From contig CAVXPZ010000001.1 in NCBI GenBank assembly GCA_963763775.1, positions 224,001 through 288,000 on the forward strand: a stretch of 64,000 bases of DNA, given 5' to 3'. Source of the DNA: an uncultured Chloroflexia bacterium. Lineage in GTDB: Bacteria > Chloroflexota > Limnocylindria > Limnocylindrales > CSP1-4. The translations under genes and the position numbers were made by a program. Numbering within the stretch: the first letter of the stretch is position 1; each line of letters begins with the position of its first letter. The notes under the pieces were generated by a model, which did not search any database, was not told the origin of the DNA, and worked only from the letters and a program-made list of their open reading frames with translations. Shown one piece after another: positions 29,160-46,006 of the stretch.

Positions 29160-30929
29160 TCAGCCGGCGGCGGCCCCTCGGGAACCGGGGGTGCCGTCGG
29201 CCGGCGCGGCCGGCGCGATCAAATCCTTCGGGCGGTGCGAGACGATCTCGGACGGCTGGAGCTCGACCGATGCCGACCCCTCCGCGGCCATCGCCGTCGA
29301 CCCGGTCGTCGGCGTCATCGGCTGGATCGGCGACCCGGCCGTGGGCATCGACTTGGGTCGGGGCGCCCGTCGCGCGGTCGCGCGCGCCGCGCCAGCCGGG
29401 ATGACGATCTGGCTCGGCGCCGGCGTCTCGTGCTGGGTCATCGCGAGCACCGTCGGATCCGGTGTCGGGGCCCGCGACGCGTACAGGTCGCAGAAGAGGT
29501 TGACGAGGTCCGGGTCGAACTGCGTGCCCGCGTGTCGCCGCAGCTCGGCGATCGCCTGGTCGTGGGAGATCGCGCGCTTGTACGGCCGGTCGTTGATCAT
29601 CGCGTCGTAGGCGTCGGCGATGGCCACGATCCGGGCGCCGAGCGGGATCTCGTTCGCGCGCAGGCCGTACGGGTAGCCATGCCCCGCGTACCGCTCATGG
29701 TGGTGGAGGATGATCGGCACGGCGTCCTTGAGCGCGGCCGCCTGCTCGAGGATGACCTGGCCGATCCGCGGATGCTGGACGACCGACCGCCACTCGCCGG
29801 TCGACAGGGCCGCGGGCTTCTCGAGGATCTCCTCCGGGATCGCCACCTTGCCGACGTCGTGCAGCAGCGCCGCGAGCTGGATCCGGTCGATCTCGGCCTC
29901 CGGCAGCTGCAGCTGGCGTGCCAGGTCGACCACGATCGTCGCGATGAGGGCGGACGGCTGCCCGCGATAGTGGGGCAGGGGATTGATGTACGACGCCAGC
30001 GCCGCCGTGGCGGCCAGGCGCGCCTGCCGGCCGATCTCCATCGCCCGCGCGCGGCCCGCGTTGGAGATCGGGGCCCGCGGGACGCGGGCGTCGTCGTCAG
30101 GTTCCGCGAAGATGTACGTCTGGTTCCGGCCGAGCGACTTGGCGGAGTACATGGCGGCGTCGGCGTCGCGCACGAGCGTGTCCACGCGAAGCTTCTGCCC
30201 CGCGCCGCCGGCGATCCCGATCGAGATGGTCACCGAGAGGTCGGGGTTGCCATCGATCGAGAAGCGCTGCTTCTGGACGAGCTGGCGGAGCTTCTCGGTG
30301 AGGACCGCGCCCTCCTCGACGTCGGTCTCGGTGAGGATCAGCATGAACTCCTCGCCGCCGTACCGGCCGATCATGTCGGACGCGCGCAGGTTCGCCCCGA
30401 GGGCCTGGGCGACGCCGCGCAGGACGATGTCACCGGCGGCGTGGCCATAGGAGTCGTTGACGGCCTTGAAGTGGTCGATGTCGACGAAGGCCACCGACAA
30501 GGGTCGCTCGTAGCGGCCGGCGCGCTCGACCTCGGCGAACAGCGACGCGAGGAGCGCGCTCCGGTTCGCGACGCCGGTCAGGCGGTCGAAGGTGGCCTCG
30601 TCGTGGGTCTCCGAGAGCCGGAGCGAGATCCCGTTGATGGCCCGGGCGAGCCGCCCGTCGAGCCCGGTGGCGCCGGCCGTCACGGACACGGAGTAGTCGC
30701 CGCTCGCGAGCCGTTCGGCGGCCTTGACGAGTCGGCCGAATCGCCAGCGCACCATGAGGTACACGCACGCCGTGGTCAGGGCGACCGCGATGGTCGCCGC
30801 GGCGATCGCGGCGATGACCGATCGACTGACCTCGTCGATCCATTCCGCGGCCAGCGCTGGCTGGGAGACGAACAGGATCCCGAGTGCGACCGGAGCCGCA
30901 AGCGCCAGGACCCCAAGCAGGCGCATCAC
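29160..30929 (-). CDS. Membrane HAMP-GGDEF-HD-GYP protein (diguanylate cyclase / phosphodiesterase)
   Basis: Two N-terminal TM segments, HAMP-like region, DIDHFKAVND, RASD I-site, RYGGEEF, LLHDVGK, HHERYAGHGYP. Confidence 0.93.
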   Translation of the reverse strand: MMRLLGVLALAAPVALGILFVSQPALAAEWIDEVSRSVIAAIAAATIAVALTTACVYLMVRWRFGRLVKAAERLASGDYSVSVTAGATGLDGRLARAINGISLRLSETHDEATFDRLTGVANRSALLASLFAEVERAGRYERPLSVAFVDIDHFKAVNDSYGHAAGDIVLRGVAQALGANLRASDMIGRYGGEEFMLILTETDVEEGAVLTEKLRQLVQKQRFSIDGNPDLSVTISIGIAGGAGQKLRVDTLVRDADAAMYSAKSLGRNQTYIFAEPDDDARVPRAPISNAGRARAMEIGRQARLAATAALASYINPLPHYRGQPSALIATIVVDLARQLQLPEAEIDRIQLAALLHDVGKVAIPEEILEKPAALSTGEWRSVVQHPRIGQVILEQAAALKDAVPIILHHHERYAGHGYPYGLRANEIPLGARIVAIADAYDAMINDRPYKRAISHDQAIAELRRHAGTQFDPDLVNLFCDLYASRAPTPDPTVLAMTQHETPAPSQIVIPAGAARATARRAPRPKSMPTAGSPIQPMTPTTGSTAMAAEGSASVELQPSEIVSHRPKDLIAPAAPADGTPGSRGAAAG

Positions 30930-31054
30930 CGGTCAAGGCTAGTCGCGAGGGTCCGGGAAACGGTCCGGTCGGAGGTACCGGTCACCGCTCGCCGGTGGTA
31001 CGGCCGGTGCGGCCACGCCACGGTCCGGGCGGCCCGCTCGCGACCGAGGACCCC

Positions 31055-31063
31055 TGCTATACT
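31055..31063 (+). promoter_or_regulatory. Extended -10 promoter of the pur operon
   Basis: TGcTATACT in otherwise very GC-rich DNA, about 215 nt upstream of purA. Confidence 0.6.
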
Positions 31064-31069
31064 CCCCCG

Positions 31070-31260
31070 GTCCTCGTCCGCAGCGGGTCATCGGGGCGAT
31101 GGTCCGTGAACCAGGAGGTCAGCGATCGCGCTTGAAGGGCGCATCGGCCGCCCCGTGAGGCGACCGAGCGACCGCACGACGGCGATCCGCCGAGACATCG
31201 GCGGCGCGACGCGGGAGATGTCTATCCAAGTCCCCGGCCATCGGACCGGGGTCTTTTCAT
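31070..31260 (+). ncRNA. Candidate riboswitch / structured attenuator leader of the purine operon
   Basis: Several hairpins, a GCGACCGAGCG segment resembling ykkC-family aptamers, and an intrinsic terminator just before purA. Class not established. Confidence 0.5.
31228..31258 (+). terminator. Intrinsic terminator within the purA leader
   Basis: CCCCGG-ccatcgga-CCGGGG followed by TCTTTTC. Confidence 0.7.
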
Positions 31261-31279
31261 GCGTGCGGGGTTCGCGCTG

Positions 31280-32588
31280 ATGCCGGCCACGGTGATCGTC
31301 GGCCTCCAGTGGGGCGACGAGGGGAAGGGCAAGACCACCGACTTCCTGGCAGAACAGGTGGCGATGGTCGTCCGCTACCAGGGCGGCGACAACGCCGGCC
31401 ACACGGTCGTGAGCGGCGACGAGGTCCTGAAGCTGCGGCTGACGCCGTCCGGCGTGCTCTACCCGCACATCACCTCGGTGATCGGCAACGGCGTCGTCGT
31501 CAACCCGGTCACCCTCATCACCGAGTTCGACATGCTCGCGTCGCGCGGGATCGACGTGAGTCGCGTCCGGGTCAGCCGCAGTGCGCACGTGATCATGCCG
31601 TACCACATCGCCCTTGACCGGGCGAACGAGGCACGCCTCGACGGCGCCAAGGTCGGTACCACCGGCCGGGGCATCGGCCCCACGTATGGGGACCGAGCCT
31701 GGCGGCTCGGCCTGCGCATGGAGGACCTCCTCGACCGCGCCGTCCTCCGTGAGCGCATCGGCCGCGCCCTTCCGGACAAGAACCTGCTCCTGGCCTCCAT
31801 GGGCGGCGATCCCTTCGACGTGGACGCGCTCGTCGAGGAGGCGGCCGGCTGGGGCGAGCGCCTGCGCGACCATCTCGACGACACGACATGGCTCGTCCAG
31901 GCCGCCCTCGGCGCGCGGCGAGCACGTCCTCCTCGAGGGCGCCCAGGGCACGCTCCTCGACCTCGATCACGGGAGCTACCCGTTCGTCACGTCGTCCAAC
32001 CCGGTGGCCGGCGGGGCGTGCACGGGCGGCGGCATCGGCCCGCTCCAGGTCGACGAGGTCATCGGCGTCATGAAGGCCTACTCGACGCGCGTCGGGTCGG
32101 GGCCGTACCCCACGGAACTCCACGACGAGATCGGCGCGGGGATCGCCGAGCGCGGCCACGAGTTCGGGACCGTGACCGGACGCCCGAGGCGCGTGGGCTG
32201 GTTCGACGCGGTCCCGCTGCGCTACGCCGTCGCCGTCAACAGCGTCAGCTCGATCATGCTCAACAAGCTCGACATCCTGTCCGGGGTCGACCCGATCCGC
32301 CTGTGCGTCGCCTACGAGATCGACGGCCGGCGCGTGGAGGTCTGGCCGTCGAGCGGCGCCGCCCTGGCGCGGGCGACGCCCATCTACGAGGCGTTCCCGG
32401 GCTGGGCCGAGCCGATCAACGGGGTCCGGTCGCTCGCGGACCTGCCCGAGAACGCCCGTCGCTACGTCAGCGCCATCGAGTCGCATGCCGGCGTGCCGAT
32501 CGTGCTGCTGTCGGTGGGGCCGGAGCGGACCCAGACGATCGAGCGGGCATGGCGGCCGATGCGACACCGGCCCGGGATCCCGGCGTGA
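31280..32588 (+). CDS. purA: Adenylosuccinate synthetase (frameshift near 31912)
   Basis: GLQWGDEGKGK, RYQGGDNAGHT, GTTGRGIGP, LEGAQGTLLDLDHGSYPFVTSS, GTVTGRPRRVGW. Confidence 0.95.
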
Positions 32589-32595
32589 GCGTGGG

Positions 32596-33933
32596 ATGAG
32601 CACGGCCAGCCTGCGCACGCCGACGCGGATCCTCGTCGTGGGCGGCGGCGGGCGCGAGCACGCGCTGGCATGGAAGCTCGCGGCCGAGCCGGGCGTCAAC
32701 GAGATCGTCGTCGCACCGGGGAGCGCCGCCATGGCGCGCGAACCGAGGGTCCGCTGCATCGACGTCGACCCGCTCGATCCACCGGCCGTGGTGGAGGTGG
32801 CCCGGCGTGTCGCCGCGGAGCTCGTCGTGGTCGGGCCGGAGGCACCGCTCGCGGCCGGTGTCGCCGACGCGCTCGTCGCGGCCGGGTTCGCGGTGTTCGG
32901 CCCGTCGCAGGCCGCCGCCCGCATCGAGAGCAGCAAGGCGTTCTGCCACGAGGTGGCTCGCGCGGCCGGCGTGCGGATGGCGCGGGCGGCGACGTTCGAC
33001 GCGCTCGAGCCCGCGCTGGCCTTCGCCAACGAGCTCGCCAGCGACGGGGGCGTGGTCATCAAGGCCGACGGCCTGGCGGCCGGCAAGGGCGTGACCGTGT
33101 GCGACGGGATGGAGGCCGCGGCCGCCGCGCTGCTCGCCGCCCTCGGCGAACCCGGGGCACGTGTCGTGGTCGAGGAGCGGCTCCACGGTCTCGAGGCCAG
33201 CCTCATCGCGCTCTGTGACGGCCGCGACGCGCTGGCCCTGCCCCTCGCTCGCGACCACAAGCGGCTCGCCGACGGCGACCTCGGCCCGAACACGGGCGGG
33301 ATGGGCGCGTACAGCCCCTTGGCGGACTTGCCCGAGTCGACCGTGCCGGCCCTGGTCGAGGCGTTCCATCGGCCGATCCTCGCCGAGCTGGCCCGCCGTG
33401 GCACGCCGTTCCGCGGCGCGCTGTACGCCGGGCTGATGCTGACGGACGCGGGACCCGTGCTCCTCGAGTGCAACGCCCGGTTCGGCGATCCCGAGACGCA
33501 GGCGCTCCTCCCGCGGCTGGCCGTCGCGCTCGGACCGCTCCTCGCGGCGGCGGCCCGGGGCGAACTGGCCGGGGCGACCGAGGCGCTGGGGATCGGCGAC
33601 GCCCGTCTGCCGACGCTCCCCGGGGCGACCGTCGCGGTCGTGCTCGCGGCGGCCGGGTACCCGGATGCGCCGCGTCGCGGCGACGTGATCCACGGCCTGG
33701 AGGCGGTCGAGGCGTCCGGCACGCTCGTCTTCCACGCAGGGACCTCGGTCGACGCGGATGGCACCGTCCGGACGTCCGGCGGCCGGGTGCTGGCCGTCGT
33801 CGGGCGCGGCGCGACCATCGACGCCGCGCGGGCCGACGCGGAACGCGCGGCCGACGAGATCACCTGGGACGGTGCCCAGCGCCGCCACGACATCGGGATC
33901 GATCCGGCACTGCCCGTGGGGGCCGGACGATGA
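32596..33933 (+). CDS. purD: Phosphoribosylamine-glycine ligase
   Basis: GGGGREHALAWKL, VGPEAPL, KADGLAAGKGV, GPNTGGMGAYSP, NARFGDPE. Confidence 0.96.
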   Translation: MSTASLRTPTRILVVGGGGREHALAWKLAAEPGVNEIVVAPGSAAMAREPRVRCIDVDPLDPPAVVEVARRVAAELVVVGPEAPLAAGVADALVAAGFAVFGPSQAAARIESSKAFCHEVARAAGVRMARAATFDALEPALAFANELASDGGVVIKADGLAAGKGVTVCDGMEAAAAALLAALGEPGARVVVEERLHGLEASLIALCDGRDALALPLARDHKRLADGDLGPNTGGMGAYSPLADLPESTVPALVEAFHRPILAELARRGTPFRGALYAGLMLTDAGPVLLECNARFGDPETQALLPRLAVALGPLLAAAARGELAGATEALGIGDARLPTLPGATVAVVLAAAGYPDAPRRGDVIHGLEAVEASGTLVFHAGTSVDADGTVRTSGGRVLAVVGRGATIDAARADAERAADEITWDGAQRRHDIGIDPALPVGAGR

Positions 33934-35285
33934 TCCGGCGGTACACCCTCGCCGAGATGGGCGCGATCTGGTCCGAGGCGGCCAGGTTCGAGGCGATGCT
34001 CCGGGTGGAGCTCGCGGTGGCGCGCGTCCAGGCGGCGCACGGGCTCATCCCGGCCGATGTGGTCGCGCCGATCGAGGACCGCGCCCGGGTCGATGTCGAG
34101 CGGATCGCGGAGATCGAGCGGACGACCGATCACGACGTCATCGCGTTCGTGAGCCAGGTCGCGGAGACGGTCGGGCCTGAGGGCCGCTACCTCCACTTCG
34201 GCCTGACGAGCAGCGACGTCGTCGACACCGGCCTCGCGCTCCAGCTCCGCGGGGCCGGGGAGCGGCTCCTCGGCGATTGCGACCGGCTCCTCCGCGTCCT
34301 CATCACGCGTGCCCGGGCCGAGGCGGAGACCGTGATGATGGGTCGGACCCATTCGGTGCACGCCGAGCCGACGACCCTCGGGCTCAAGCTCGCCGGCTGG
34401 GCGTTCGAACTCGAGCGCGGCCGGACGCGCCTGGCGGCGGCCGTGGACGAGATCGGGACCGGCAAGATCTCGGGTCCCGTCGGGACGTACAGCCACCTCG
34501 GCCCGGAGATCGAGGCCGAGGTGCTCGCGGCCCTCGGGTTGCACGCGGATGCGGTCAGCAGCCAGATCGTCCAGCGCGACCGACATGCGGCCCTGCTGGC
34601 GGCCGTGGCGATCCTCGGCGGCTCCCTGGAGCGCTTCGCCACGGAGGTGCGGAACCTCCAGCACACGGAGATCGGGGAGCTGCAGGAGCCGTTCGCCGCC
34701 GGGCAGAAGGGCTCGAGCGCGATGCCGCACAAGCGCAACCCGATCCTGTCGGAGCGGATCGCCGGGCTGGCGCGCCTGCTGCGCGGGTATGCCCACACCG
34801 CGCTCGAGGACCAGCCGCTGTGGCACGAGCGTGACATCAGCCACTCGAGCGCGGAACGGGTCATCCTCCCGGACGCCACGATCGTGCTCGATTACATGCT
34901 CGTGAAGATGACCGGCCTCGTGGACGGCCTCGTCGTCCGGTCCGAGCGGATGCGCGAGAACATCGCCCGGGGCCTCGGCCTGCACGCGTCGTCACGGGTG
35001 CTCGTGGCCCTCGTCGAGACCGGCGGCCTGTCTCGCGAGGAGGCCTACGCCATCGTGCAGCGCGCGGCGTTGCGGGCGGCGGACGAGCGCGCGCCGCTCC
35101 GGGACCTGCTGGCCGTGGATCCGGCGGTCGCCCAGCGGCTCTCGCTCGTGCAACTCGACGCGTGCTTCGACGATGCCGCGTTCCTCCGCCATCGCCCGGT
35201 GATCATCGCCCGGCTCGACAGGCTCAGCGACGCGCTCGACGCGCGGACCGCCACCCGCCCGGCGACGGTGCCCGATGCTGGCTGA
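33930..35285 (+). CDS. purB: Adenylosuccinate lyase
   Basis: MIRRYT, HDVIAF, HFGLTSSD, GSSAMPHKRNP, WHERDISHSS. Confidence 0.96.
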   Translation: MIRRYTLAEMGAIWSEAARFEAMLRVELAVARVQAAHGLIPADVVAPIEDRARVDVERIAEIERTTDHDVIAFVSQVAETVGPEGRYLHFGLTSSDVVDTGLALQLRGAGERLLGDCDRLLRVLITRARAEAETVMMGRTHSVHAEPTTLGLKLAGWAFELERGRTRLAAAVDEIGTGKISGPVGTYSHLGPEIEAEVLAALGLHADAVSSQIVQRDRHAALLAAVAILGGSLERFATEVRNLQHTEIGELQEPFAAGQKGSSAMPHKRNPILSERIAGLARLLRGYAHTALEDQPLWHERDISHSSAERVILPDATIVLDYMLVKMTGLVDGLVVRSERMRENIARGLGLHASSRVLVALVETGGLSREEAYAIVQRAALRAADERAPLRDLLAVDPAVAQRLSLVQLDACFDDAAFLRHRPVIIARLDRLSDALDARTATRPATVPDAG

Positions 35286-36268
35286 GACCTACCTCCGGTC
35301 CGGCAAGGTCCGCGACCTGTACCGCCTCAACGACGGGCGGGTCGTGCTCGTCGCCTCGGACCGGATCAGCGCGTTCGACGTGGTGCTGCCGACCCTGATC
35401 CCGGACAAGGGCCGGGTCCTCACCGCCATCTCGCGCTTCTGGTTCAAGGAGACCGGCTCGATCATCGAGAACCACCTGCTCACGGCGGACGTCCGCGACC
35501 TCGAATCGACGCTGATCGGCGAGGTGGAGGCGAGCGGTGGGTCGGCCGCCGACCTCGGCTCGTTCGACGACCTGCGCGGCCGCGTGATGCTCTGCCGCTC
35601 GGCGTCGGTGGTCCCGATCGAAGCCGTCGTCCGCGGGTACCTGTCGGGCTCGGGGTGGAAGGAGTACCAGGCGAGCGGCACCGTCTGCGGCATCGCCCTG
35701 CCGAGCGGGCTCCGCGAGAGCGACCGGCTGCCGCAGCCGATCTTCACGCCGGCGACGAAGGCCGAGCTGGGCCAGCACGACGAGAACATCGACTTCGACA
35801 CGATGATCGACCATCTGGCGGCGTGGGAGCTCGACGGACGCGACGCCGCGGCCGAGGTCGCGGAGCGGATCCGCGACGTCAGCCTGCGGCTGTACGGGTA
35901 CGCGAGCGCCGTCGCCGCGACGGCGCGGCATCGTGCTCGCCGATACGAAGTTCGAATTCGGGTTCCCCGTCCCGGGCGAACGGTCCCGTCCGAGTGACGG
36001 CCTCATGCTCATCGACGAGGCGCTGACGCCCGATTCGTCGCGGTTCTGGGACGCCGCGACCTACGAGCCGGGCCGGCCGCAGGCGAGCTTCGACAAGCAG
36101 TTCGTCCGCGACTGGCTCGAGGCCCAGCCCTGGGACAAGACGGCCCCGGGTCCCGCCCTGCCGGACGACGTCGTCGATGGCACGCGTGCCCGCTACATCG
36201 ACGCCTACGAACGCCTCACCGGCGCCTCGTTCGAGCGCTATCTCCAGGAGGATGTCATCGCCTCATGA
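35275..36268 (+). CDS. purC: SAICAR synthetase (frameshift near 35926)
   Basis: [57 protein letters not shown]. Confidence 0.95.
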
Positions 36269-36549
36269 CCAGCTTCCGGTTCGCCGTCAACGTGCTGCCC
36301 AAGCCCGGCATCCTCGATCCGCAGGGCCGGGCGGTCGAGGGCAGTCTCGGCCATCTCGGGATCGACGGCGTCAGCGCGGTCCGCGTCGGGCGCCGGGTGG
36401 AGCTGACCGTCGACGCGCCGGACGAGGCGGCCGCCGAGGCGGTCGTCGACCGTCTCGCCGCGGAGCTGCTCTCGAACCCGCTCATCGAGGCGTATACCGT
36501 CGAGGCGGTCGGGGCGACGTCGTCCGTCACGGCGAGCCGGGCGAACTGA
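36265..36549 (+). CDS. purS: FGAM synthase subunit PurS
   Basis: [23 protein letters not shown]. Confidence 0.95.
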
Positions 36550-36551
36550 CG

Positions 36552-37292
36552 ATGGGCGTGCGGATCGGCGTCGTCGTCTTCCCGGGCAGCAACTGCGATC
36601 GGGACACCGTCCACGCCCTCGAGCTGGCCGGTGCGGAGCCCGTCGTGCTCTGGCACGAACAGGCGTCGCTCGACGGCGCGGCGGCCGTGGTGCTCCCGGG
36701 CGGGTTCGCCTACGGCGACTATCTCCGGGCGGGGGTCATCGCGCGGTTCAGCCCGGTGATGCGGTCCGTCACGGCCTTCGCGAACGACGGCGGACTCGTG
36801 CTGGGGATCTGCAACGGGTTCCAGGTCCTCGCCGAGGCCCACCTCGTCCCGGGGGCACTGCTGCGCAACGCCTCGCTGCGGTTCGCCGGCCAGCAGGTGC
36901 GGATCGCGGCCGAGCGGGTCGACACGGTGTTCACGCACGGCCTCGAGGCCGGCCGCCCGCTGCGGATGCCGGTCGCCCACGGCGAGGGCTGCTACTTCGC
37001 CGACGAGGCCACGCTCGACGACCTCGAGCGCGCCGGCGCGGTCATCTTCCGGTATGTCGATGCGGCTGGCCGCCCGGCCGGTCCCGAGGATCCCGCGAAC
37101 CCGAACGGCTCGCTCCGGGCCATCGCCGGGGTCGTCAACGCCGCGGGCAACGTCGCCGGGCTCATGCCGCACCCGGAGCGGGCGGCCGAGGCGATCCTCG
37201 GCTCCGACGACGGTGCCGGCATCATCCGGGCCCTCGTCGAGAGTGCCGCACGCGCGGCCTCCGACCAGCCGGTCGTCGTGGGCGCGCGATGA
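36552..37292 (+). CDS. purQ: FGAM synthase glutaminase subunit
   Basis: [45 protein letters not shown]. Confidence 0.96.
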
Positions 37293-39613
37293 CCCTCGCC
37301 GAGCGACCCGTGGAGCCGCTGCACCGCCGGCTGGGCGTCACCGACGACGAGCTCGACGCGATCCGCGACCGGCTCGGCGGCCGCGACCCCAACGACCTCG
37401 AGCTCGCGATGTTCAGCGTCATGTGGAGCGAGCACTGCTCCTACAAGAGCTCGAAGCCGCTGCTCAAGACGCTGCCGACCGCCGGCGAGGGCGTGGTCGC
37501 CGGCCCGGGCGAGAACGCGGGCGTCATCTCGATCGGCGACGGCCTGGCGGTCGCGTTCAAGATCGAATCGCACAACCATCCGAGCGCGGTCGAGCCGTAC
37601 CAGGGCGCGGCGACCGGGGTGGGCGGCATCCTCCGCGACATCTTCACGATGGGCGCCCGCCCGATCGCGATCCTCGACGCCCTGCGGTTCGGCGATCCGG
37701 CCGACGCCCGCACCCGGCACCTCGTCGACGGCGTGGTCCGCGGCGTGGGCGGCTACGGCAACTGCGTCGGCGTCCCGACGGTCGGCGGCGAACTCGTGTT
37801 CGACCCGACCTACCAGGGCAACCCGCTCGTCAACGTGATGGCGATCGGCCTCATGGAGGAGCGGCTCCTGACGCTCGCGGCCGCGCCGGGACCCGGCAAC
37901 CTCGTGGTGCTGTTCGGGTCGGCCACCGGTCGCGACGGCATCGGCGGCGCCTCCGTCCTCGCGAGCGCGACCTTCACCCACGACGACCCGTCCAAGCGGC
38001 CCTCGGTCCAGGTCGGCGACCCGTTCGCCGAGAAGCTGCTGATCGAGGCGAGCCTGGAGCTCATCGAACGCGGTCTCGTCGAGGGCCTGCAGGACCTCGG
38101 CGCCGGCGGCATCACCTGCGCCACGTCGGAGACGGCCGACCGTGCCGGGACCGGGATGCTCGTCGACCTCGACGCGATCCCGCGGCGAGAGCCCGGGCTG
38201 GAACCCTTCGAGGTCATGATCTCCGAGTCGCAGGAGCGGATGTGCGCCGCGGTCCTCCCGGAGCGCTGGGAGGACGTCCGCGAGGTCTGCACCCGCTGGG
38301 GTCTGCCGGTCGCCGTCATCGGCCGCGTCACCGCGGACGGGGACATCGTCGTCATCGACGGCGGCCTGGCCCCCGACGGCGGACCGAACCCCGGGGCCAC
38401 GGAACTCGCCCGGATCCCGGCGGCCGCGCTGACGAGTGACGCCATCGTCCACGCGCGGGTCGCGAGCCCGCCGACGCACCAGCGCCTCGCGCCCGCACCG
38501 GGCGCGCCGCTGGAGCCGGTCGACCGGCTCCCGGAGCGGGGGATGGACCCGGGGGCCGTGCTCCTCGCCCTCCTGGGCTCGGCGAATCTCGCCTCGCGGC
38601 ATCGCGTGTTCCACCAGTACGACTCGACCATCGGCGCCGACACGATCGCCGGGCCTGGCCAGGGGGCGGCCGTGATGCGCGTCAAGGGCACGACGAAGGC
38701 GCTCGTCGCGGCGACGGACGGGAACCAGGGTGTCGGCGCGGTGGACCCGTGGCTCGGCGCGGCGCTGTCGGTCGCGGAGGCGACCCGCAACGTCTCCATC
38801 ACCGGCGCCCGGCCGCTCGGCGTGACGAATTGCCTCAACTACGGCGATCCGACCCGGCCGGAAGCGTTCTGGCAGCTGACCGAAGGGGTCCGCGGTCTCG
38901 GGGATGCCTGCCGGGCGCTCGGGCTGCCCGTGACGGGCGGCAACGTGTCGCTCTATAACGAGTCGCCGACCGGGGCGATCGCCCCGACCCCGGAGATCGG
39001 CGTGGTCGGCCTCATCGAGGATGTCGCGACGCTGGTCGGCCCGGCCTTCGCGGCGACGCACGACGCCGTCGTCCTCGTCGGCGAGTCCGGTCCCGGCCTG
39101 GCCGGCTCGGCCTACGCGGCGCTCGCGGGCGCGGCGGTCGAGGACGGCCCGCCCGGCCTCGATCTCGCTCGGGAGGCGGCCGTCCAGGCGTTCGTCCGCG
39201 AAGCGATCGCGCGCGGGCTCGTCGCCTCGGCGCAGGACGTCTCGGGCGGCGGCCTCGCCGTCGCCCTGGCCGAAGGGGCGATGTGGGGCGATCTCGGGGC
39301 GACGGTCCGTCTCGCCGTCGCGAGCTCGCCCGCGGTCGACCTGTTCGGCGAGAGCCCGTCGCGTCTCGTGCTGACCTGTCGGCCGAGGTATGCCGCGGCG
39401 CTCGAGCTGCTCGCCCGGCAGTACGGTCTGCCCGTCGAGACCATCGGCACGGTCGGCGGCGATCGGCTCGTGATCGAGCTGGTCGGGGCGGGGGCGACCG
39501 GCGCGTCGGAGGAACGAGGGAGCCGGGTCGCCGACGCCCTCGAGGTCCCGCTCGCGGACATGCGGCATGCCTGGGATCACGGGCTCGGCCGCGCGCTCGG
39601 CTGGGAGGGCTGA
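37289..39613 (+). CDS. purL: FGAM synthase subunit PurL
   Basis: [49 protein letters not shown]. Confidence 0.97.
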
Positions 39614-39615
39614 CC

Positions 39616-41079
39616 ATGTGCGGCGTCTTCGGAGCGGTCCTGCCGAACGGCGAAGCCACCGATGCGGCCGCCCTTGCGACGCTGGGCCTGTTCGCCCTGC
39701 AGCATCGCGGGCAGGAGTCGGCCGGGATCGCCGTGAGCGACGGCGAGCAGCTCATGCTCTACAAGGACCTCGGGATGATCAGCACGGTCCTCGACGAGCG
39801 CCGCCTGCCGAGCCTCCGCGGGCGCCTGGCCATCGCCCACTGCCGCTACTCGACCACGGGCTCGACGATCTGGGAGAACGCGCAGCCGACCTACCGACGG
39901 GGCCCGCGGCGCGCGATCGCCATCGGCCACAACGGCAACCTCGTCAACACGCGCGACCTGCTCACGCAGCTCGAGGGCGGCCGGGCCCGCCTCCCGGCCT
40001 CGACCGACACGGAGCTCCTGACCGCGCTCCTCGCCGACGAGCCTGCGGCCGACACCGTCGAGGCCATGGTCCGCGTCCTCCCGCGCGTCAAGGGCGCGTT
40101 CAGCCTCGTCGTGCTCGACCAGCGCCGGGTCATCGGCGTTCGCGACCCGCACGGGTTCCGGCCGCTCGTCCTCGGACGGATCCCCTCGACGCCGGAGGTG
40201 GGCGGCCCCGACGACGGCCTGTGGGTCGACGACGACGCCTCCGCCGGCTGGTGCCTGTCGTCGGAGACGGCGGCGCTCGACATCGTCGGCGCCGAATTCG
40301 TGCGGGACGTCGAGCCCGGCGAGATCGTCATCCTCGAGCCCGGCCAGCCGCCTCGATCGGTCCGCTACGCGGCGGCGAACCCGGCCCTCTGCGTCTTCGA
40401 GTTGATCTACTTCGCCCGCCCGGACTCGTACATGGAAGGCCGCAACCTCTACGAGGTCCGCCGTCGGATGGGGGAGCAGCTGGCCATCGAGCACCCGGTC
40501 GACGCCGACCTCGTGATGCCCGTGCCCGACACCGGAGCGCCGGCCGCGGCCGGCTACGCCGAGGGGTCGGGCCTGCCGTACCGGGAGGGGATGTACCGCA
40601 ACCGGTATGCCGGTCGCACGTTCATCCAGCCGTCGAAGGGCCTCCGCCACCGCGGCGTGACGATCAAGCTCAACCCGCTGCGCGAAGTGGTCGCGGGCAA
40701 GCGGCTCATCGTCGTCGACGATTCGATCGTCCGCGGCACCACGACCAAGCGCATCGTCGAACTGCTGCGCAAGGCCGGCGCCACCGAGGTCCACGTCCGG
40801 ATCAGCGCGCCGCCGATCTACCACCCGTGCTTCTACGGCATCGATACCTCGATCGAGACCGAGCTGATCGCGGCCACCCATACGGAGGCCGAGATCCGGG
40901 AGTTCATCGGCGCCGACTCGCTCGGCTACCTCTCGATCCGCGGCGTGCTGGCCGCCCTCGACCTGCCGTACGACCGGTTCTGCTTCGCGTGTTTCGACGG
41001 CAACTACCCCGAGCCCGTCCCCTACGACGCCTCGAGCCGGAAGTTCATGCTCGAGGAGCCCGAACTCGCCCATGGCTGA
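39616..41079 (+). CDS. purF: Amidophosphoribosyltransferase
   Basis: N-terminal MCG, LQHRGQESAG, RYSTTG, VDDSIVRGTT, PCFYGID, FCFACFDG. Confidence 0.97.
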   Translation: MCGVFGAVLPNGEATDAAALATLGLFALQHRGQESAGIAVSDGEQLMLYKDLGMISTVLDERRLPSLRGRLAIAHCRYSTTGSTIWENAQPTYRRGPRRAIAIGHNGNLVNTRDLLTQLEGGRARLPASTDTELLTALLADEPAADTVEAMVRVLPRVKGAFSLVVLDQRRVIGVRDPHGFRPLVLGRIPSTPEVGGPDDGLWVDDDASAGWCLSSETAALDIVGAEFVRDVEPGEIVILEPGQPPRSVRYAAANPALCVFELIYFARPDSYMEGRNLYEVRRRMGEQLAIEHPVDADLVMPVPDTGAPAAAGYAEGSGLPYREGMYRNRYAGRTFIQPSKGLRHRGVTIKLNPLREVVAGKRLIVVDDSIVRGTTTKRIVELLRKAGATEVHVRISAPPIYHPCFYGIDTSIETELIAATHTEAEIREFIGADSLGYLSIRGVLAALDLPYDRFCFACFDGNYPEPVPYDASSRKFMLEEPELAHG

Positions 41080-41096
41080 GCGATCGGCGGCGCGGC

Positions 41097-41186
41097 GGCC
41101 CATCCCGGCGTTGGCGGCTGCGGGCGCTCGCTCACGCACCGCCAAGTGCGCTCGCTCGTGTCCTCGCCGCCGCCTTGGCCTGGGCC
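41097..41186. repeat. 90-bp imperfect palindromic element at the purF/purM junction
   Basis: Nested arms GGCCCA/TGGGCC, GGCGGC/GCCGCC, GGGCGC/GTGTCC and CGCAC/GTGCG around a CGCCAA loop. Confidence 0.6.
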
Positions 41187-42348
41187 ACCCCGCCCCCGTC
41201 GTCCCGATCGAGGCGACGCGCGGGCGGCGTATCGCGCGGCCGGGGTCGACGTCGCCGCGGGCGAGGAAGCCGTCGAGCGGATGCGCGGGCACGTCGAGTC
41301 CACGCGGCGACCCGAGGTCGTCGGGGGTCTCGGGGGCTTCGGCGGCGCGTTCTCGATCCCGTCGGGCTACCGGGAGCCGCTGATGGTCGCCTCGACCGAC
41401 GGCGTGGGCACCAAGACCGCGATCGCCGCCTCGGTCGGCCGCTTCGACACCATCGGCATCGACCTGGTCGCGATGTGCGCGGACGACGTCGTCTGCACGG
41501 GGGCCGAGCCGCTCGCGTTCCTCGACTACGTCGCGGTCGGACACCTCGATCCCATGGCGGTGGCCGAGCTCGTCGGCGGGGTCGCGGCGGGTTGTCGCGA
41601 GGCCGGCTGCGCGCTCGTCGGCGGTGAGACCGCGGAGCACCCCGGGCTCATGGACGCGGACGAGTTCGACCTGGCCGGGACCGCGATCGGCGTGGTCGAG
41701 CGGGACCGGGTGATCGACGGCCGCGCCACCCGCGACGGGGATGTGATCGTCGGGCTTGCCGCGTCCGGGCTGCACGCCAATGGCTACTCGCTCGTCCGCG
41801 CGCTCGTCGCGCGATGGGACCTCGACCTCGCCGACCCGTACCAGACGCGGCTGCGTCGGACGCTCGGCGACGCGGGGACGGATGCCGCCCTCACGGCCGC
41901 CCCGCACGAGGCGCTCGCGACCCTGGGCGAGGTCCTGCTCACGCCCACCCGGATCTACGCCCTCGCGGTCCTCGGGGTGCGGGACGCCCTCGTCGCGGCC
42001 GGGTCCGACATCCACGGACTCGCGCACATCACTGGTGGCGGGCTGCCCGGGAACGTGCCGCGCGCGCTCGGTCCCGACCTGGCAGCACGGCTGGACCCGA
42101 CCCGATGGCGCCTGCCGTCGGTCATGGCCTTGTTCGGCGGCCTCGGCGGCCTCGATGACCGCGAGCTCCGCTCGACCTTCAACGGCGGCCTCGGGATGGT
42201 GGTCGTGCTGCCCGCAGCCGCGGCGCCGATCGCCATCGGCGCGTTCGAGTCCCGCGGCATCGCCGCGTCCGTGGTCGGCGAGGTCGTCGCCGCGGCCGAC
42301 GTCGGCGGCGCCCGCTATGTCGAGGGCCCGCTGGGGATCGAGGCATGA
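41146..42348 (+). CDS. purM: AIR synthetase (true start uncertain; possibly ATG 41072 with a frameshift)
   Basis: YRAAGVD, GGFGGAF, STDGVGTK, GGETAEHPG, SGLHANGYSL, HITGGG, TFNGGLG. Confidence 0.94.
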   Translation: MRSLVSSPPPWPGPPRPRRPDRGDARAAYRAAGVDVAAGEEAVERMRGHVESTRRPEVVGGLGGFGGAFSIPSGYREPLMVASTDGVGTKTAIAASVGRFDTIGIDLVAMCADDVVCTGAEPLAFLDYVAVGHLDPMAVAELVGGVAAGCREAGCALVGGETAEHPGLMDADEFDLAGTAIGVVERDRVIDGRATRDGDVIVGLAASGLHANGYSLVRALVARWDLDLADPYQTRLRRTLGDAGTDAALTAAPHEALATLGEVLLTPTRIYALAVLGVRDALVAAGSDIHGLAHITGGGLPGNVPRALGPDLAARLDPTRWRLPSVMALFGGLGGLDDRELRSTFNGGLGMVVVLPAAAAPIAIGAFESRGIAASVVGEVVAAADVGGARYVEGPLGIEA

Positions 42349-44574
42349 CCGGAGACCGGCCGCGCGTCGCCGTGGGCGTGTCCGGCACCGGCTCGAACCT
42401 GCGAGCCCTGGCCGCGGCGGCCGGACGCGGCGAGCTCGGCGGCGACCTCGCGCTCGTGTTCGCGGATCGCGAGTGTCCGGCCCTGGCGTGGGCGGCGGAG
42501 CAGGGGATCGAGACGGCCCTGATCCCCGGCGGCGACGACGCGACCATCGCGGACGCGCTCGCCGGTGTCGCGCCCGACGCGGTCGTCCTCGCCGGGTACA
42601 TGCGGCTCATCGGGCCGGCGGTGCTCGCCGCCTACCCAGGCCGGATCCTCAACACGCATCCGAGCCTGCTGCCGGCGTTCCCGGGCGCGCACGCGGTTCG
42701 CGACGCGCTGGCGCACGGCGCGACCGTGACCGGCTGCACGGTCCATCTCGTCGACGCGACGCTCGACGGTGGGCCGATCGTGGCCCAGGAGGCGGTTCCC
42801 GTCGCCCCGGACGACGATGTCGCGAGCCTCCACGCCCGGATCCAGGCCGTCGAGCACCGGCTGCTGCCGCGGGCCGTCTCGCTGCTGCTGGCGGACGCCC
42901 TGCAGGTCGCCGACGACGGCCGCCGCGTCGTCATCGACCTGTCGCGAGCGGACGTCCGGGTCCCGGTCCCGCGGCGGGCGCTCCTCTCGGTCTCGGACAA
43001 GAGCGGGCTGGCGGACCTGGGCCGCGGCCTCGTCGCCCGCGGCTATCGAGCTCGTGTCCACGGGCGGCACGGCGCGGACGCTGCGCGACGCCGGTCTGCC
43101 CGTGACCGATGTCGCGTCGGTGACCGGGTTCCCGGAGATGCTCGACGGCCGGGTGAAGACGTTGCACCCACGGATCCATGCCGGCTTGCTCGCGGATCGG
43201 CGCCTCGAGGAGCATCGACGCCAGCTGCTCGCGGCCGCCATCGCGCCGTTCGACATCGTGGTCGTGAACCTGTACCCGTTCGCGGCGGCGCTCGAGCGGC
43301 CCGGCATCACCATCGACGAGCTGATCGAGGAGATCGACATCGGGGGCCCGTCGATGGTCCGGGCGGCGGCGAAGAACCACGCCAACGTCGCGATCGTGAC
43401 GTCGCCGGATCGCTACGACGACCTGCTGGCCGCCATCGATGCCGACGGCGGTCCCGGCGAGGGACTCCGCCGCCAGCTCGCCTTGGACGCGTTCGCGCAC
43501 ACCGCGGCCTACGACGCCAGGATCGCGGCGGAGCTCCCCGGCCGGATGGTCGGCGGCGGGTCTGCTGCCCGCCCCGGCCGACCCGTTCCCGTCGACACTG
43601 ACGCTGGCGCTCGAGAAGGTCGAGACGCTCCGCTATGGCGAGAATCCGCACCAGCCCGCCGCGCGATATCGCCGCCCGGGGACGACGCTCGCCGACGGGT
43701 TGTTCGGGGTGGAGCGGGCGCCGCTCCAGGGCAAGGCCCTCTCGTACAACAACGTCCTCGACGCGTCGGCGGCCTCGGCGCTCGGGCCGGGCGCTGCGCG
43801 GGCCGGGGGTCGTGATCGTGAAACACACGAACCCCTGTGGTGCCGCGGAGCGACCAACGCTGCTCGAGGCATGGTCGGCCGCGCTGGCATCCGACCCGGT
43901 GAGCGCGTTCGGGGGTGTGGTCGCGCTCACCCGCCCCGTCGACCGGGCCGTCGCCGAGGCCCTCGTCTCGATCTTCCTCGAGGTCGTGATCGCGCCCGCC
44001 GTGGACGACGACGCGCGGACCGTCCTCGCCTCCAAGCCCAATCTGCGCGTGCTCATCGACGAGGCGCTGGCCCAGGACGCGCCGGCCGGCCACCTGGACC
44101 CGACGGGCTCGATCCGGACCGCTGGCGGCACCTACCTCGTGAGCGTACCGGACGTCGCGACCGATGACGCCGACGCGTGGACGTGCGCCACACGACGTGT
44201 GCCGACCGACTGCGGAACTCCTCGACCTCGACCTCGCCTGGCGGCTGGTCCGAGGCGTGACGTCGAACGCGATCGTCCTCGTGAAGGACCGGCGCCTGGT
44301 CGGGATGGGGAGCGGCCAGACCTCGCGCGTCGACGCAGCCCGGCAGGCGGTCGCCAAGGCGCACGCGATGCTGGGGGCGAGCTCGACGCTCGGCGCCTCG
44401 TGCGGATCGGACGCCTTCTTCCCGTTCACCGATGCGGTGGAGGTCTGCCTGAGCGCCGGCGTCACGGCATTCGCCCAGCCCGGCGGGTCCATGCGCGACG
44501 CGGAGTCGATCGCCGTCGTGGACGCGGCAGGCGCCTCCATGGTCCTGACGGCGGTCCGCCACTTCCGGCATTGA
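42345..44574 (+). CDS. purNH: Fused GAR formyltransferase (PurN) and AICAR transformylase/IMP cyclohydrolase (PurH); frameshifts near 43045, 43560, 43788 and 44212
   Basis: [20 protein letters not shown] and DGGPIVAQ run in frame into [10 protein letters not shown]; then [57 protein letters not shown]. Confidence 0.9.
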
Positions 44575-44761
44575 TGGCCGGATCGCGCCAGCCGCCGATG
44601 GCACGATCGACCGGCTGCCCTCCACCGCGGTGCAGACCGCGATCGCGTGGGGGTATGGTCGCGCCGTGGTCTTCGCATCCCTCGCGGCGCTCGTCGCCGA
44701 GGCCGCCTTGTCGGCGGCGGTCAACGTCCGGTCCATGCAGCCCACGGCGGGAGACCGCCGC

Positions 44762-46006
44762 GTGACACGGCCCGGACCCGACGGCACGCCCCCGCGACTC
44801 TCGGTCCTGGTCCCGGCCTGGCAGTCGGCGGCCTCGATCGCCCAGGCGCTCGGCTCCGTGCTCGAGGAGACCTCGATCGCCCTGGAGTGCATCGTCGTCG
44901 ACGACGGCTCGACCGACGGGACGCCCGACGTCGTCGAGGCCATCGCCGCCCGCGACCCGCGCGTCGTCCTCATCCGCCTGGCCGAGAACGCCGGCGTCTC
45001 CGCGGCCCGGAACCGCGGCCTGGAGGTCGCTCGCGGGGAGTGGCTGGCCTTCCTCGACGCCGACGACCGGCTGCTGCCGGGAGCCATCGCGGCGCTCATG
45101 CGTCCCACCGCCGACCCGGCCGTGCGGGCGGTCGTCGGGCAGCGGATCTGGACCGACGGCGAGCGCCGCTGGCTCTCGCCGGTCTATGACGACCCGGATA
45201 TCCGCGAACCCGGCCGCAAGGCGATCGCCACGCATCCGGGCCTGCTCTTCTACGCCTCGGCGACGGGCAAGGCCTTCCACCGCTCGCTCGTCGACGGGCT
45301 GCGGTTCGAGGGCCGCGTCCTCGGCGACCAGCCGTGGACGATCCGGGCCCTGTTGCGCGCCGGCGACCGGATCGAGGTCATCGGCGACACGGTCTACGAG
45401 TGGCGGCGGCCCGCTCCGGGCACGCGCGGGGCCACGATCACCGCGGTCACCCGGGCCTCGGCGGCCCGGTCCATCGAGATCGCGGCGGTCGCCCGCACCG
45501 CGTTCGCCGAGGTGAGCGCGGAGGTCGACGCGCAGCTCCCGGACCCGGCGGCCCGGCTCGAGGTCAAGCGGGCGTACCTGGACCGGCTGATCCGGTCGGA
45601 CCTGGCGGTCCCGGTCACCGACGCGATCGACCGCCACGACCCGGCGACCGCCTCCCTGCTCCGGGAGGTGGGGCGCTTCCTGGCCTCGGTCCCCGCGCCG
45701 GTCCTCGCGCGGTCGACCCTGCTCGCGCGCCGGATCCTCCGGCCGCCGGTGGTCCGCTGGCGGTCGCTCGACCCCGGGGCGCGGTCCGCCTACTGGACGA
45801 TCCTCGACCGGGCCGCCGACGCCGATCCGACCGTCGGGCGACGGGTCGGCGGTCTCGCGCTGCGCCCCGCCTACGCGCTCGTCCGATCGGCTCGGCGCGC
45901 CGGTGGGGACGGCGATCGCCTCCGGCTGGTTCTGGGCAGGGTTCGACGGCGATCGCGATCGGCGGCCGGTTCCTCCGCCGCTGACGGGCCGGGCCGGCCC
46001 GCCTGA
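44762..46006 (+). CDS. Glycosyltransferase family 2 (ends uncertain; true stop may be 45984)
   Basis: LSVLVPAW, VVDDGSTDGT, NAGVSAARNRG, FLDADD; GTG 44762 after GGGAG. Confidence 0.88.
   Translation: MTRPGPDGTPPRLSVLVPAWQSAASIAQALGSVLEETSIALECIVVDDGSTDGTPDVVEAIAARDPRVVLIRLAENAGVSAARNRGLEVARGEWLAFLDADDRLLPGAIAALMRPTADPAVRAVVGQRIWTDGERRWLSPVYDDPDIREPGRKAIATHPGLLFYASATGKAFHRSLVDGLRFEGRVLGDQPWTIRALLRAGDRIEVIGDTVYEWRRPAPGTRGATITAVTRASAARSIEIAAVARTAFAEVSAEVDAQLPDPAARLEVKRAYLDRLIRSDLAVPVTDAIDRHDPATASLLREVGRFLASVPAPVLARSTLLARRILRPPVVRWRSLDPGARSAYWTILDRAADADPTVGRRVGGLALRPAYALVRSARRAGGDGDRLRLVLGRVRRRSRSAAGSSAADGPGRPA

Follow-up and report, generated by a model that had tools for sequence, protein, structure and literature searches.

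A leader RNA of about 210 nucleotides (nt) precedes purA, the first gene of a purine biosynthesis operon, in an uncultured Chloroflexia bacterium (GTDB lineage Limnocylindria; Limnocylindrales; CSP1-4). Comparison with related genomes indicates that this leader is translated, by way of a weak start codon behind a strong Shine-Dalgarno sequence (SD), in a frame that crosses an intrinsic terminator and stops on the purA start codon. Here, we report the analysis of the leader within a window of 64,000 nt (the whole stretch studied: assembly GCA_963763775.1, contig CAVXPZ010000001.1, positions 224,001 to 288,000; positions below count from its first letter, and features lie on the plus strand unless stated). 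We read the leader as an attenuator that depends on the ribosome in the manner of pyrBI and hands over to purA by termination-reinitiation, with a probability of roughly 0.55. The data support its description as an RNA of no described family that is conserved, structured, and terminator ending, has its own promoter, and stands before a purine operon. An initial annotation, made from the letters alone, had proposed an untranslated, ligand-sensing attenuator.

Translation of the leader

Leaders were compared in four alignments: 24 leaders of the genus (A1), from which covariance model R1 was built; 28 further loci from the R1 search of the family (A2); 40 more stretches from more distant genera (A3); and an 87-leader family alignment (A4). 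A2 to A4 were aligned to R1 and hence are biased towards the model, and related genomes are not independent samples.

Within the genus, the SD AGGAGG (31113 to 31118) is invariant and lies 6 to 7 nt before an AUC that is likewise invariant in 24/24 leaders. From this AUC (31125 to 31127), a leader open reading frame (ORF) of 51 codons (31125 to 31280) extends through helices P2, P3, P4, and P5 and the terminator to a UGA at 31278 to 31280. In 21/24 leaders, no stop interrupts the ATC frame until one at −2 or −4 relative to the purA start; the exceptions are L011 (which holds Ns), L016, and L021. ATC and purA are 131 to 436 nt apart, a distance equal to 2 mod 3 in 21/24. Stop codons number 2 in 1,718 codons of this frame, versus 36 in 1,715 and 15 in 1,694 codons of the other two, and alignment gaps come in multiples of three (24 columns at P4, 54 in L023, 3 in L013). 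An open frame kept from an SD-proximal start to purA contradicts the earlier view of this ~210-nt leader as untranslated. The GTG of a conserved CCGTGA loop is in frame in 18 of the 24 leaders, and one more has TTG there; L005 lacks any canonical start in frame, both within 45 codons of the ATC and upstream in the open frame. We infer that AUC itself is used as a start codon.

Across the family, the path of a ribosome was classified for those 86 leaders in which the purA start could be seen. At the start site, 50 leaders read ATCG, 19 read GTTG (a further 6 rows are offset by one column), and 10 read ATTG; ATG does not occur there. Leaders with UUG carry a mini-ORF of 10 codons (8 to 12 in a few) that ends at the UGA of the CCGUGA loop; this UGA overlaps a GUG (GUGA), which opens the long frame. 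Such a relay is the form found in most other genera, and an AUC or AUU in the long frame gives a single fused ORF. A continuous path from an SD-proximal start to between −5 and +13 of the purA start exists in 82/86 leaders: 41 are fused, 30 use the relay, 10 could go either way, and 1 uses a relay by AUU. The 4 others have no continuous path. As a control, frame 0 counted from the loop GUG reaches −6 to +14 of the purA start in 82/85 leaders, compared with 1 and 5 for the remaining two frames; GUG-to-purA distances take 42 distinct values between 101 and 452 nt. Stops in frame 0 number 2 in 4,462 codons, versus 111 in 4,459 and 34 in 4,448. An antisense gene was rejected as the cause of the open frame (32, 110, and 30 stops in the minus-strand frames).

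Individual leaders depart from the common arrangement and keep the path. One-base deletions in L049, L053, L061, L065, L075, and L078 bring AUC into frame with the loop UGA, recreating the relay. GUGA is absent from 12/86 leaders; those among them whose path is intact all have their first start already in the long frame. In L084, the loop UGA is gone, and the frame opened by UUG itself extends to a TAG abutting purA; the GTCTATCCAGGTCCC block is then read in a different frame. Where the spacer exceeds 100 nt, 13/16 leaders keep the path.

The possibility that the ORF encodes a functional small protein, or an arrest peptide that senses a metabolite in the exit tunnel, was rejected as very unlikely, neither frame nor peptide being conserved. 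The block GRIGRPVRRPSD of the genus does show a third-position excess (minority counts 20/13/40 for positions 1/2/3) and is the only block to do so; the third-position columns with the greatest variation (A1 columns 90 and 105) coincide with positions that long P3 leaves unpaired. Fused and relay forms encode different peptides, L084 reads the conserved block in yet another frame, and the tail after the terminator is unrelated between genera, ranging from a few to >100 residues and including translated repeat elements. Selection thus appears to act on translation and not on the peptide, and the comparison of leaders shows selection on frames, overlaps, helices, and terminator alike.

The repeats belong to a dispersed element of ~125 to 150 nt with terminal inverted repeats, resembling miniature inverted-repeat transposable elements or repetitive extragenic palindromes. 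Many relatives carry it, in one or the other orientation, in the spacer from terminator to purA (for example, L008:1350-1508, minus strand). It has 8 matches in this genome, including one copy between purF and purM (window positions 41094 to 41181), and 5 in G013.

Probable coupling to purA

The stop of the leader ORF overlaps the purA ATG (31280 to 31282) in the sequence UGAUG (31278 to 31282). The start of purA is set by the conserved MPATVIVGLQWGDEGKGK; the ATG at 31259 given in the ORF list is not the purA start. Among the 86 leaders, the long frame ends between −5 and −2 relative to the purA start in 73 and between +1 and +13 in 9. A strong SD of its own precedes purA in 8/9 leaders whose ORF runs into purA, versus 17/73 with an overlapping or abutting stop. 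A leader ORF of Mycobacterium tuberculosis, uPPE2, has been shown to pass ribosomes on to PPE2 by termination-reinitiation (passages of PMC11260477).

Terminator

The intrinsic terminator, CCCCGG-CCAUCGGA-CCGGGG followed by UCUUUUC (31232 to 31258), lies inside the leader ORF. Its stem spans 31232 to 31251, and its tail, TCTTTTC, ends at 31258, 20 nt 5' of purA, in agreement with the initial annotation. It is the sole terminator-like site in 30600 to 31700, against 0.2 expected from shuffled sequences. A hairpin with a T-rich tail occupies the same place in 85/87 leaders (median −17.8 kcal/mol), its stem covaries, and the distance from start site to T-tract is ~129 to 140 nt in most leaders.

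A constitutive landing pad would take these features as housekeeping: the leader ORF would deliver ribosomes to an SD-less purA start and shield the spacer from Rho, and hairpin and T-tract would form a leaky or insulating terminator, with no metabolite decision. The stop-start overlap and its inverse relation to purA's own SD suit this scheme, as do the absence of regulatory codons and of a clear antiterminator. A survey of leader ORFs adjoining gene starts in Actinobacteria, in passages that leave purA unmentioned, proposes that such ORFs boost translation by reinitiation (PMC4833913). A landing pad leaves unexplained why the ORF retains so strong and regular a terminator, set at a constant distance from the start, why weak start codons are the rule throughout (never ATG in the 86 leaders), and why a covarying helix sequesters the SD; we regard such a pad as unlikely.

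In many leaders, the sequence CATG stands directly 3' of the T-tract (TTTTCATG). Its ATG is in the leader-ORF frame in a number of leaders (peptides ...GLFM.. and ...GFFM..); in this genome, the corresponding ATG at 31259 is in the purA frame. An ATG after the T-tract may be a restart codon on read-through transcripts.

RNA structure

The predicted fold of the single sequence is no more stable than that of shuffled sequences (z = −0.52) and for that reason was not taken as evidence; the case for structure is comparative. In P1, with its inner hairpin region (31072 to 31118), CCUC at 31072 to 31075 pairs with GAGG (31115 to 31118) of the SD. P1 has 95.8% of cells paired in the genus alignment and 91.4% in A4, where 3/4 pairs show both-sided changes. 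The hairpin that it encloses is variable and here includes TGGT-CCGTGA-ACCA at 31100 to 31113. Of two hairpins that the initial annotation had paired up by their shared CCGUGA loop, this one is peculiar to the present genome (GTGAAC occurs there in only 3/24 genus rows), and the other, CGCC-CCGTGA-GGCG at 31149 to 31162, was found and belongs to P3. A GGTC/GACC helix thought to close a three-way junction appears in neither the minimum-energy nor the consensus fold.

P2 (31123 to 31146) is the hairpin CGAU(C)GCGC - UUGAAGG - GCGCAUCG, carries the AUC start in its 5' strand, and matches the stem CGAT(C)GCGC / GCGCATCG noted earlier at these positions. In the genus, 97.9% of its cells are paired, with hardly any pair varying; in distant genera, it is replaced, by eye, by another pairing, UGCUCG/CGAGCA. 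The long P3 hairpin (31138 to 31173; apical loop CCGUGA at 31153 to 31158) is mutually exclusive with P2, has 98.7% of cells paired in the genus, and shows both-sided changes in 12/13 pairs family-wide; GUGA of its loop (31155 to 31158) is kept in 74/86 leaders. P4 (31182 to 31207), GCG..CCGCCGA-GACA-UCGGCGG..CGC, keeps its pairing with variable sequence, and its core, CCGCCGA-gaca-TCGGCGG at 31187 to 31204, had been recognized correctly from the single sequence. Both-sided changes affect 7/7 of its inner pairs family-wide, and 4/24 genus leaders miss it as an in-frame gap of 24 columns. The conserved block CGGGAG-AUGU-CUAUCC-AAGUCCC (31212 to 31235) abuts the terminator and contains a small hairpin, P5 (31213 to 31217 with 31222 to 31227). 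The GTCTATCCAGGTCCC nucleotides are kept across the family, even in L084, where they are read in a different frame. As a guess, the block could be a pause signal or an antiterminator.

Two conformers fit the 24 genus leaders: conformer A, with P1, P2, a short P3, P4, P5, and the terminator (94.4% of cells paired), and conformer B, in which the long P3 takes the 3' strand of P2 (95.0%). Two-sided covariation at genus level is confined to P4, the terminator, and one long-P3 pair. In the model-fitted A4, both-sided changes occur in 29/37 pairs, P1, long P3, and P4 covary, and 88.6% of cells are paired, versus 79.5% in shuffles (0/500 reach the observed value) and 39 to 48% with slid partners. The idea of a structured leader RNA put forward in the initial annotation is thereby borne out, with pairing kept and covarying family-wide. 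Apart from P4 and the terminator, an all-against-all column scan of A4 for additional helices returned just pairings of G-rich segments with the T-tract and one of 4 bp between start site and loop (columns 97 to 100 with 130 to 133); the last was not trusted.

Distribution and comparison with known RNA families

The window was scanned against the 4,227 models of Rfam 15 at gathering scores, and the region 30900 to 31350 was scanned at E ≤10. The first scan gave 0 matches. The second gave none within the leader; a weak match to the L17 ribosomal-protein leader (30965 to 31012) and a noise match to tfoR both fall outside it. Models of the ykkC subtype 2/phosphoribosyl pyrophosphate (PRPP), purine, ZTP, and NMT1/xanthine riboswitches did not match the leader in either scan. 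The Rfam search that the initial annotation had suggested thus assigns the leader to no existing family. The 11-mer GCGACCGAGCG, cited there as a feature of PRPP-sensing ykkC RNAs, is present at 31160 to 31170; the likeness to ykkC is not supported, as it depends on that 11-mer, which is also four codons of the leader ORF.

Leader DNA is present in 22 of 24 other genomes of the genus, at 74 to 96% identity, and comparison with relatives' purA leaders, a second check suggested, found it conserved, with covarying helices. R1 has a single copy in the window's own genome (a second match, at E 0.145, was taken as noise) and matches 110/151 family genomes in 41/49 genera, with one copy per genome; a match in G121 is counted here and was left out of later analysis. 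In an order-level draw, R1 matches 85/108 family genomes versus 0/42 sister-family genomes. Against 80 purA loci of other lineages, drawn from a purA search of named genomes of several phyla (≤54% identity), nothing fell below E 0.2. One bin, G002 (540 contigs, 4% contamination), holds two diverged copies of leader plus purA on separate contigs (L012 and L025), probably a strain mixture.

A new ligand-binding RNA that gates initiation of the leader ORF, with the upstream ORF (uORF) relay and terminator as its expression platform, is the interpretation nearest to the original proposal. P1, P3, and P4 are real and covary, sequestration affects the SD as well as the start codon, P2 and long P3 form exclusive conformers that are each ~95 to 99% compatible with all genus sequences, and letters of the loops and junctions are conserved. 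Operons of this type are under riboswitch control in other bacteria, and a riboswitch that works by way of a uORF has a precedent in the B12 switch of the M. tuberculosis ppe2 uORF, as described in passages of PMC11260477. What stands of the proposal is a structured, terminator-ending leader of no known family. A ligand pocket is not supported: the best-conserved letters, including those in unpaired positions, are the SD, the start site, the GUGA overlap, and UGAUG, all explained by translation, and GUGA has dropped out of the loop in leaders that can do without the relay. Moreover, about eight of the 40 leaders from more distant genera lack the 5' hairpin domain (P1/P1a), and the helix at the start codon differs between subgroups; a ligand pocket is normally the most constant part of a riboswitch. 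With no Rfam family matching in addition, we think a riboswitch improbable.

An RNA-binding protein could instead recognize the conserved hairpin and loop or the GUCUAUCCAGGUCCC block and set leader translation or termination, as PyrR and TRAP do elsewhere. Nucleotide blocks conserved without covariation (the P2 stem in the genus, GUCUAUCC family-wide) suit such a protein. We take GAACCAGGAGGUC to be loosely like the PyrR binding loop; no model match supports the likeness, and the E ≤10 scan, which presumably included the PyrR binding-site family, found nothing inside the leader. No candidate regulator gene is linked to the leader (the neighbor is a divergent GGDEF/HD-GYP gene), and no search aimed at such a protein was made. 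A protein of this kind is decidedly unlikely.

Proposed mechanism

In the ribosome-dependent attenuator that we favor, transcription would start ~7 nt 3' of TGCTATACT, and a ribosome would bind the strong SD AGGAGG and initiate at a weak codon, AUC 31125 here and UUG or AUU elsewhere. In this genome, it would then translate one 51-codon frame through P2 to P5, the terminator hairpin, and the T-tract to the UGA that overlaps the purA AUG; in most other genera, it would take the 10-codon mini-ORF to the UGA of the CCGUGA loop and pass by the overlapping GUG into the long frame. A ribosome close behind RNA polymerase would block the terminator hairpin, as at Escherichia coli pyrBI, and would then pass to purA by termination-reinitiation. 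Without leader translation, the terminator would form and the 11-gene operon would be off. Access to SD and start would be limited by P1 (anti-SD:SD) and by P2/P3. Candidate signals are the pacing of polymerase versus ribosome by purine nucleoside triphosphates (NTPs) and the general translation status.

Suppression of the terminator by the ribosome, and any regulation by it, are inferred from the arrangement of the leader and from precedent. Formation of the pyrBI terminator is averted when ribosome and polymerase stay tightly coupled across the pyrL leader peptide (PMC5021804, citing Roland et al. 1988), and a translating ribosome is reported to repress a nearby Rho-independent terminator (PMC4824070).

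Several observations weigh against this attenuator. The only conserved start in this genome is the noncanonical AUC, with the in-frame GUG at 31155 as an alternative, and L011 (which holds Ns), L016, L021, and L067 (4/86) lack a continuous path. The leader peptides, whose fused, relay, and L084 forms differ, share no regulatory codon run. No homopolymer purine tract akin to the U-tracts of pyrBI was seen, and the block at 31212 to 31235 is a candidate NTP-pause region by position only. By eye, only a 4- to 5-bp GGGA/UCCC pairing could compete with the terminator as an antiterminator; it is invariant, so that covariation is silent on it. The helices covary, including the one that sequesters the SD, a feature that fits an RNA gated by a ligand or a protein just as well. 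Not all bacteria keep ribosome and polymerase closely coupled. Finally, the available RNA data are metatranscriptome contigs without strand, ends, or DNA control and permit no inference on transcription start, termination, or habitat.

Among those data, 18 RNA-labeled runs hold at most 0.13 of the sampled words, and low-depth contigs of relatives in four soil metatranscriptome runs cover parts of the leader (for example, 31048 to 31227 and 31136 to 31251). A near-identical 151-nt contig in two soil metatranscriptome runs spans 30977 to 31128, across the −10 box. If this contig is RNA, some transcription could enter the leader from upstream; DNA carry-over could account for it too.

A more ambitious version of the attenuator is doubtful, though worth stating: the folded part P1 to P5, with the near-invariant CCGUGA loop and GUCUAUCCAGGUCCC block, might be an undescribed sensor of a purine-pathway metabolite or a purine NTP that gates or paces the uORF relay across the terminator.

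Promoter, operon, and neighboring genes

The intergenic region between purA and the divergent neighbor extends from 30930 to 31280. An extended −10 element, TGCTATACT, lies at 31055 to 31063, where the initial annotation had placed it, and transcription probably starts ~6 to 8 nt 3' of it, at G 31069/31070. TATACT stands just 5' of the model match in 77 of the 87 leaders, 68 of them with TGn, and most of the others have near variants. Assignment of the −10 box is based on this conservation because a consensus promoter scan detected no site in the leader region. About 45 to 95 nt 5' of the −10 box, the stretch 30960 to 31015 holds two copies of a GGT(G)GTACC-like motif, with similar pairs in several genus relatives; this pair could serve purA, or else the divergent GGDEF gene, as an operator. 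The Rfam match to the L17 leader noted above, subthreshold at 25.7 bits (E 0.15), falls in the same stretch.

The gene for adenylosuccinate synthetase, purA (31280 to 32588; Pfam PF00709), is followed on the plus strand by purD, purB, purC, (purS), purQ, purL, purF, purM, purN, and purH (32485 to 44765), assigned from Pfam hits except for purS, which was assigned solely from a purS-sized ORF (35933 to 36268). Judged by their tight spacing on one strand, purA to purH are likely cotranscribed as an 11-gene operon headed by the leader. In the window, purA falls into two frames with a break near 31908 to 31913 (PF00709 positions 1 to 207 in the frame of 31259/31280, positions 207 to 416 in that of ORF 31614 to 32588), and purH is spread across three frames (42769 to 44765). 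RNA contigs of relatives are one base shorter at 31910 to 31913, the site of the purA break. The breaks in both genes are probably assembly indel errors and not signs of pseudogenes. The divergent neighbor (29160 to 30929, minus strand) encodes, by Pfam, a GGDEF diguanylate cyclase domain fused to an HD domain of the HD-GYP type.

Relation to known leaders

The E. coli pyrBI leader (pyrL) and the related rph-pyrE resemble the leader described here in having a promoter of their own, a short leader whose intrinsic terminator closely precedes the first biosynthetic gene, an ORF that continues through the terminator hairpin, and nucleotide biosynthesis genes under their control. They differ from it in pathway, which is purine here and not pyrimidine, and in lineage, which is unrelated; dependence on coupling is proposed here by analogy. 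Furthermore, the present leader has a weak AUC or UUG start behind a sequestered SD, a two-step GUGA relay in most genera, a stop-start overlap with the first gene, and no evident NTP-sensitive pause region of the U-tract kind. The M. tuberculosis ppe2 leader, as far as passages of PMC11260477 describe it, is likewise a translated, structured RNA of high G+C content with a stop-start overlap (AUGA there; UGAUG and GUGA here), and in both cases the main gene probably depends on uORF translation, a dependence suggested here, indirectly, by the distribution of purA's own SD. The ppe2 leader contains a cobalamin aptamer for which ligand binding was shown; in the present leader, no known aptamer was found, and the uORF spans the terminator.

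Classical attenuators (trp, his, leu, pheA, and ilv) resemble it in promoter, short translated ORF, alternative helices, and a terminator before a biosynthetic operon. Their peptide stops before the terminator, and they have runs of regulatory codons and a defined antiterminator; the present ORF, in contrast, passes across the terminator, and neither a codon run nor the peptide frame is conserved. Purine-pathway riboswitches (guanine/adenine [RF00167], PRPP and other ykkC subtype 2, ZTP, and xanthine/NMT1) also occupy leaders of purine genes that end in a terminator; the present leader differs from them in giving no model match at E ≤10 and in having conserved letters that are translation signals.

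Significance

Purine operons are textbook targets of repressors and riboswitches, and full-text literature searches found no paper on a ribosome-mediated attenuator of a purine operon. If the folded part does prove to be a sensor, one RNA would set both read-through and purA translation of an 11-gene operon via the ribosome and would stand to purines as pyrBI does to pyrimidines, with an input like that of a riboswitch or one that senses NTPs. For scans of high-G+C genomes, the leader is a caution that a covarying leader ending in a terminator need not be a riboswitch. Its two stop-start relays (GUGA and UGAUG), with a frame held open across a terminator and inserted repeats, offer unusually clear comparative evidence for selection on the act of translating, and at ~210 nt it is a compact natural part that may couple transcription read-through to ribosome traffic.

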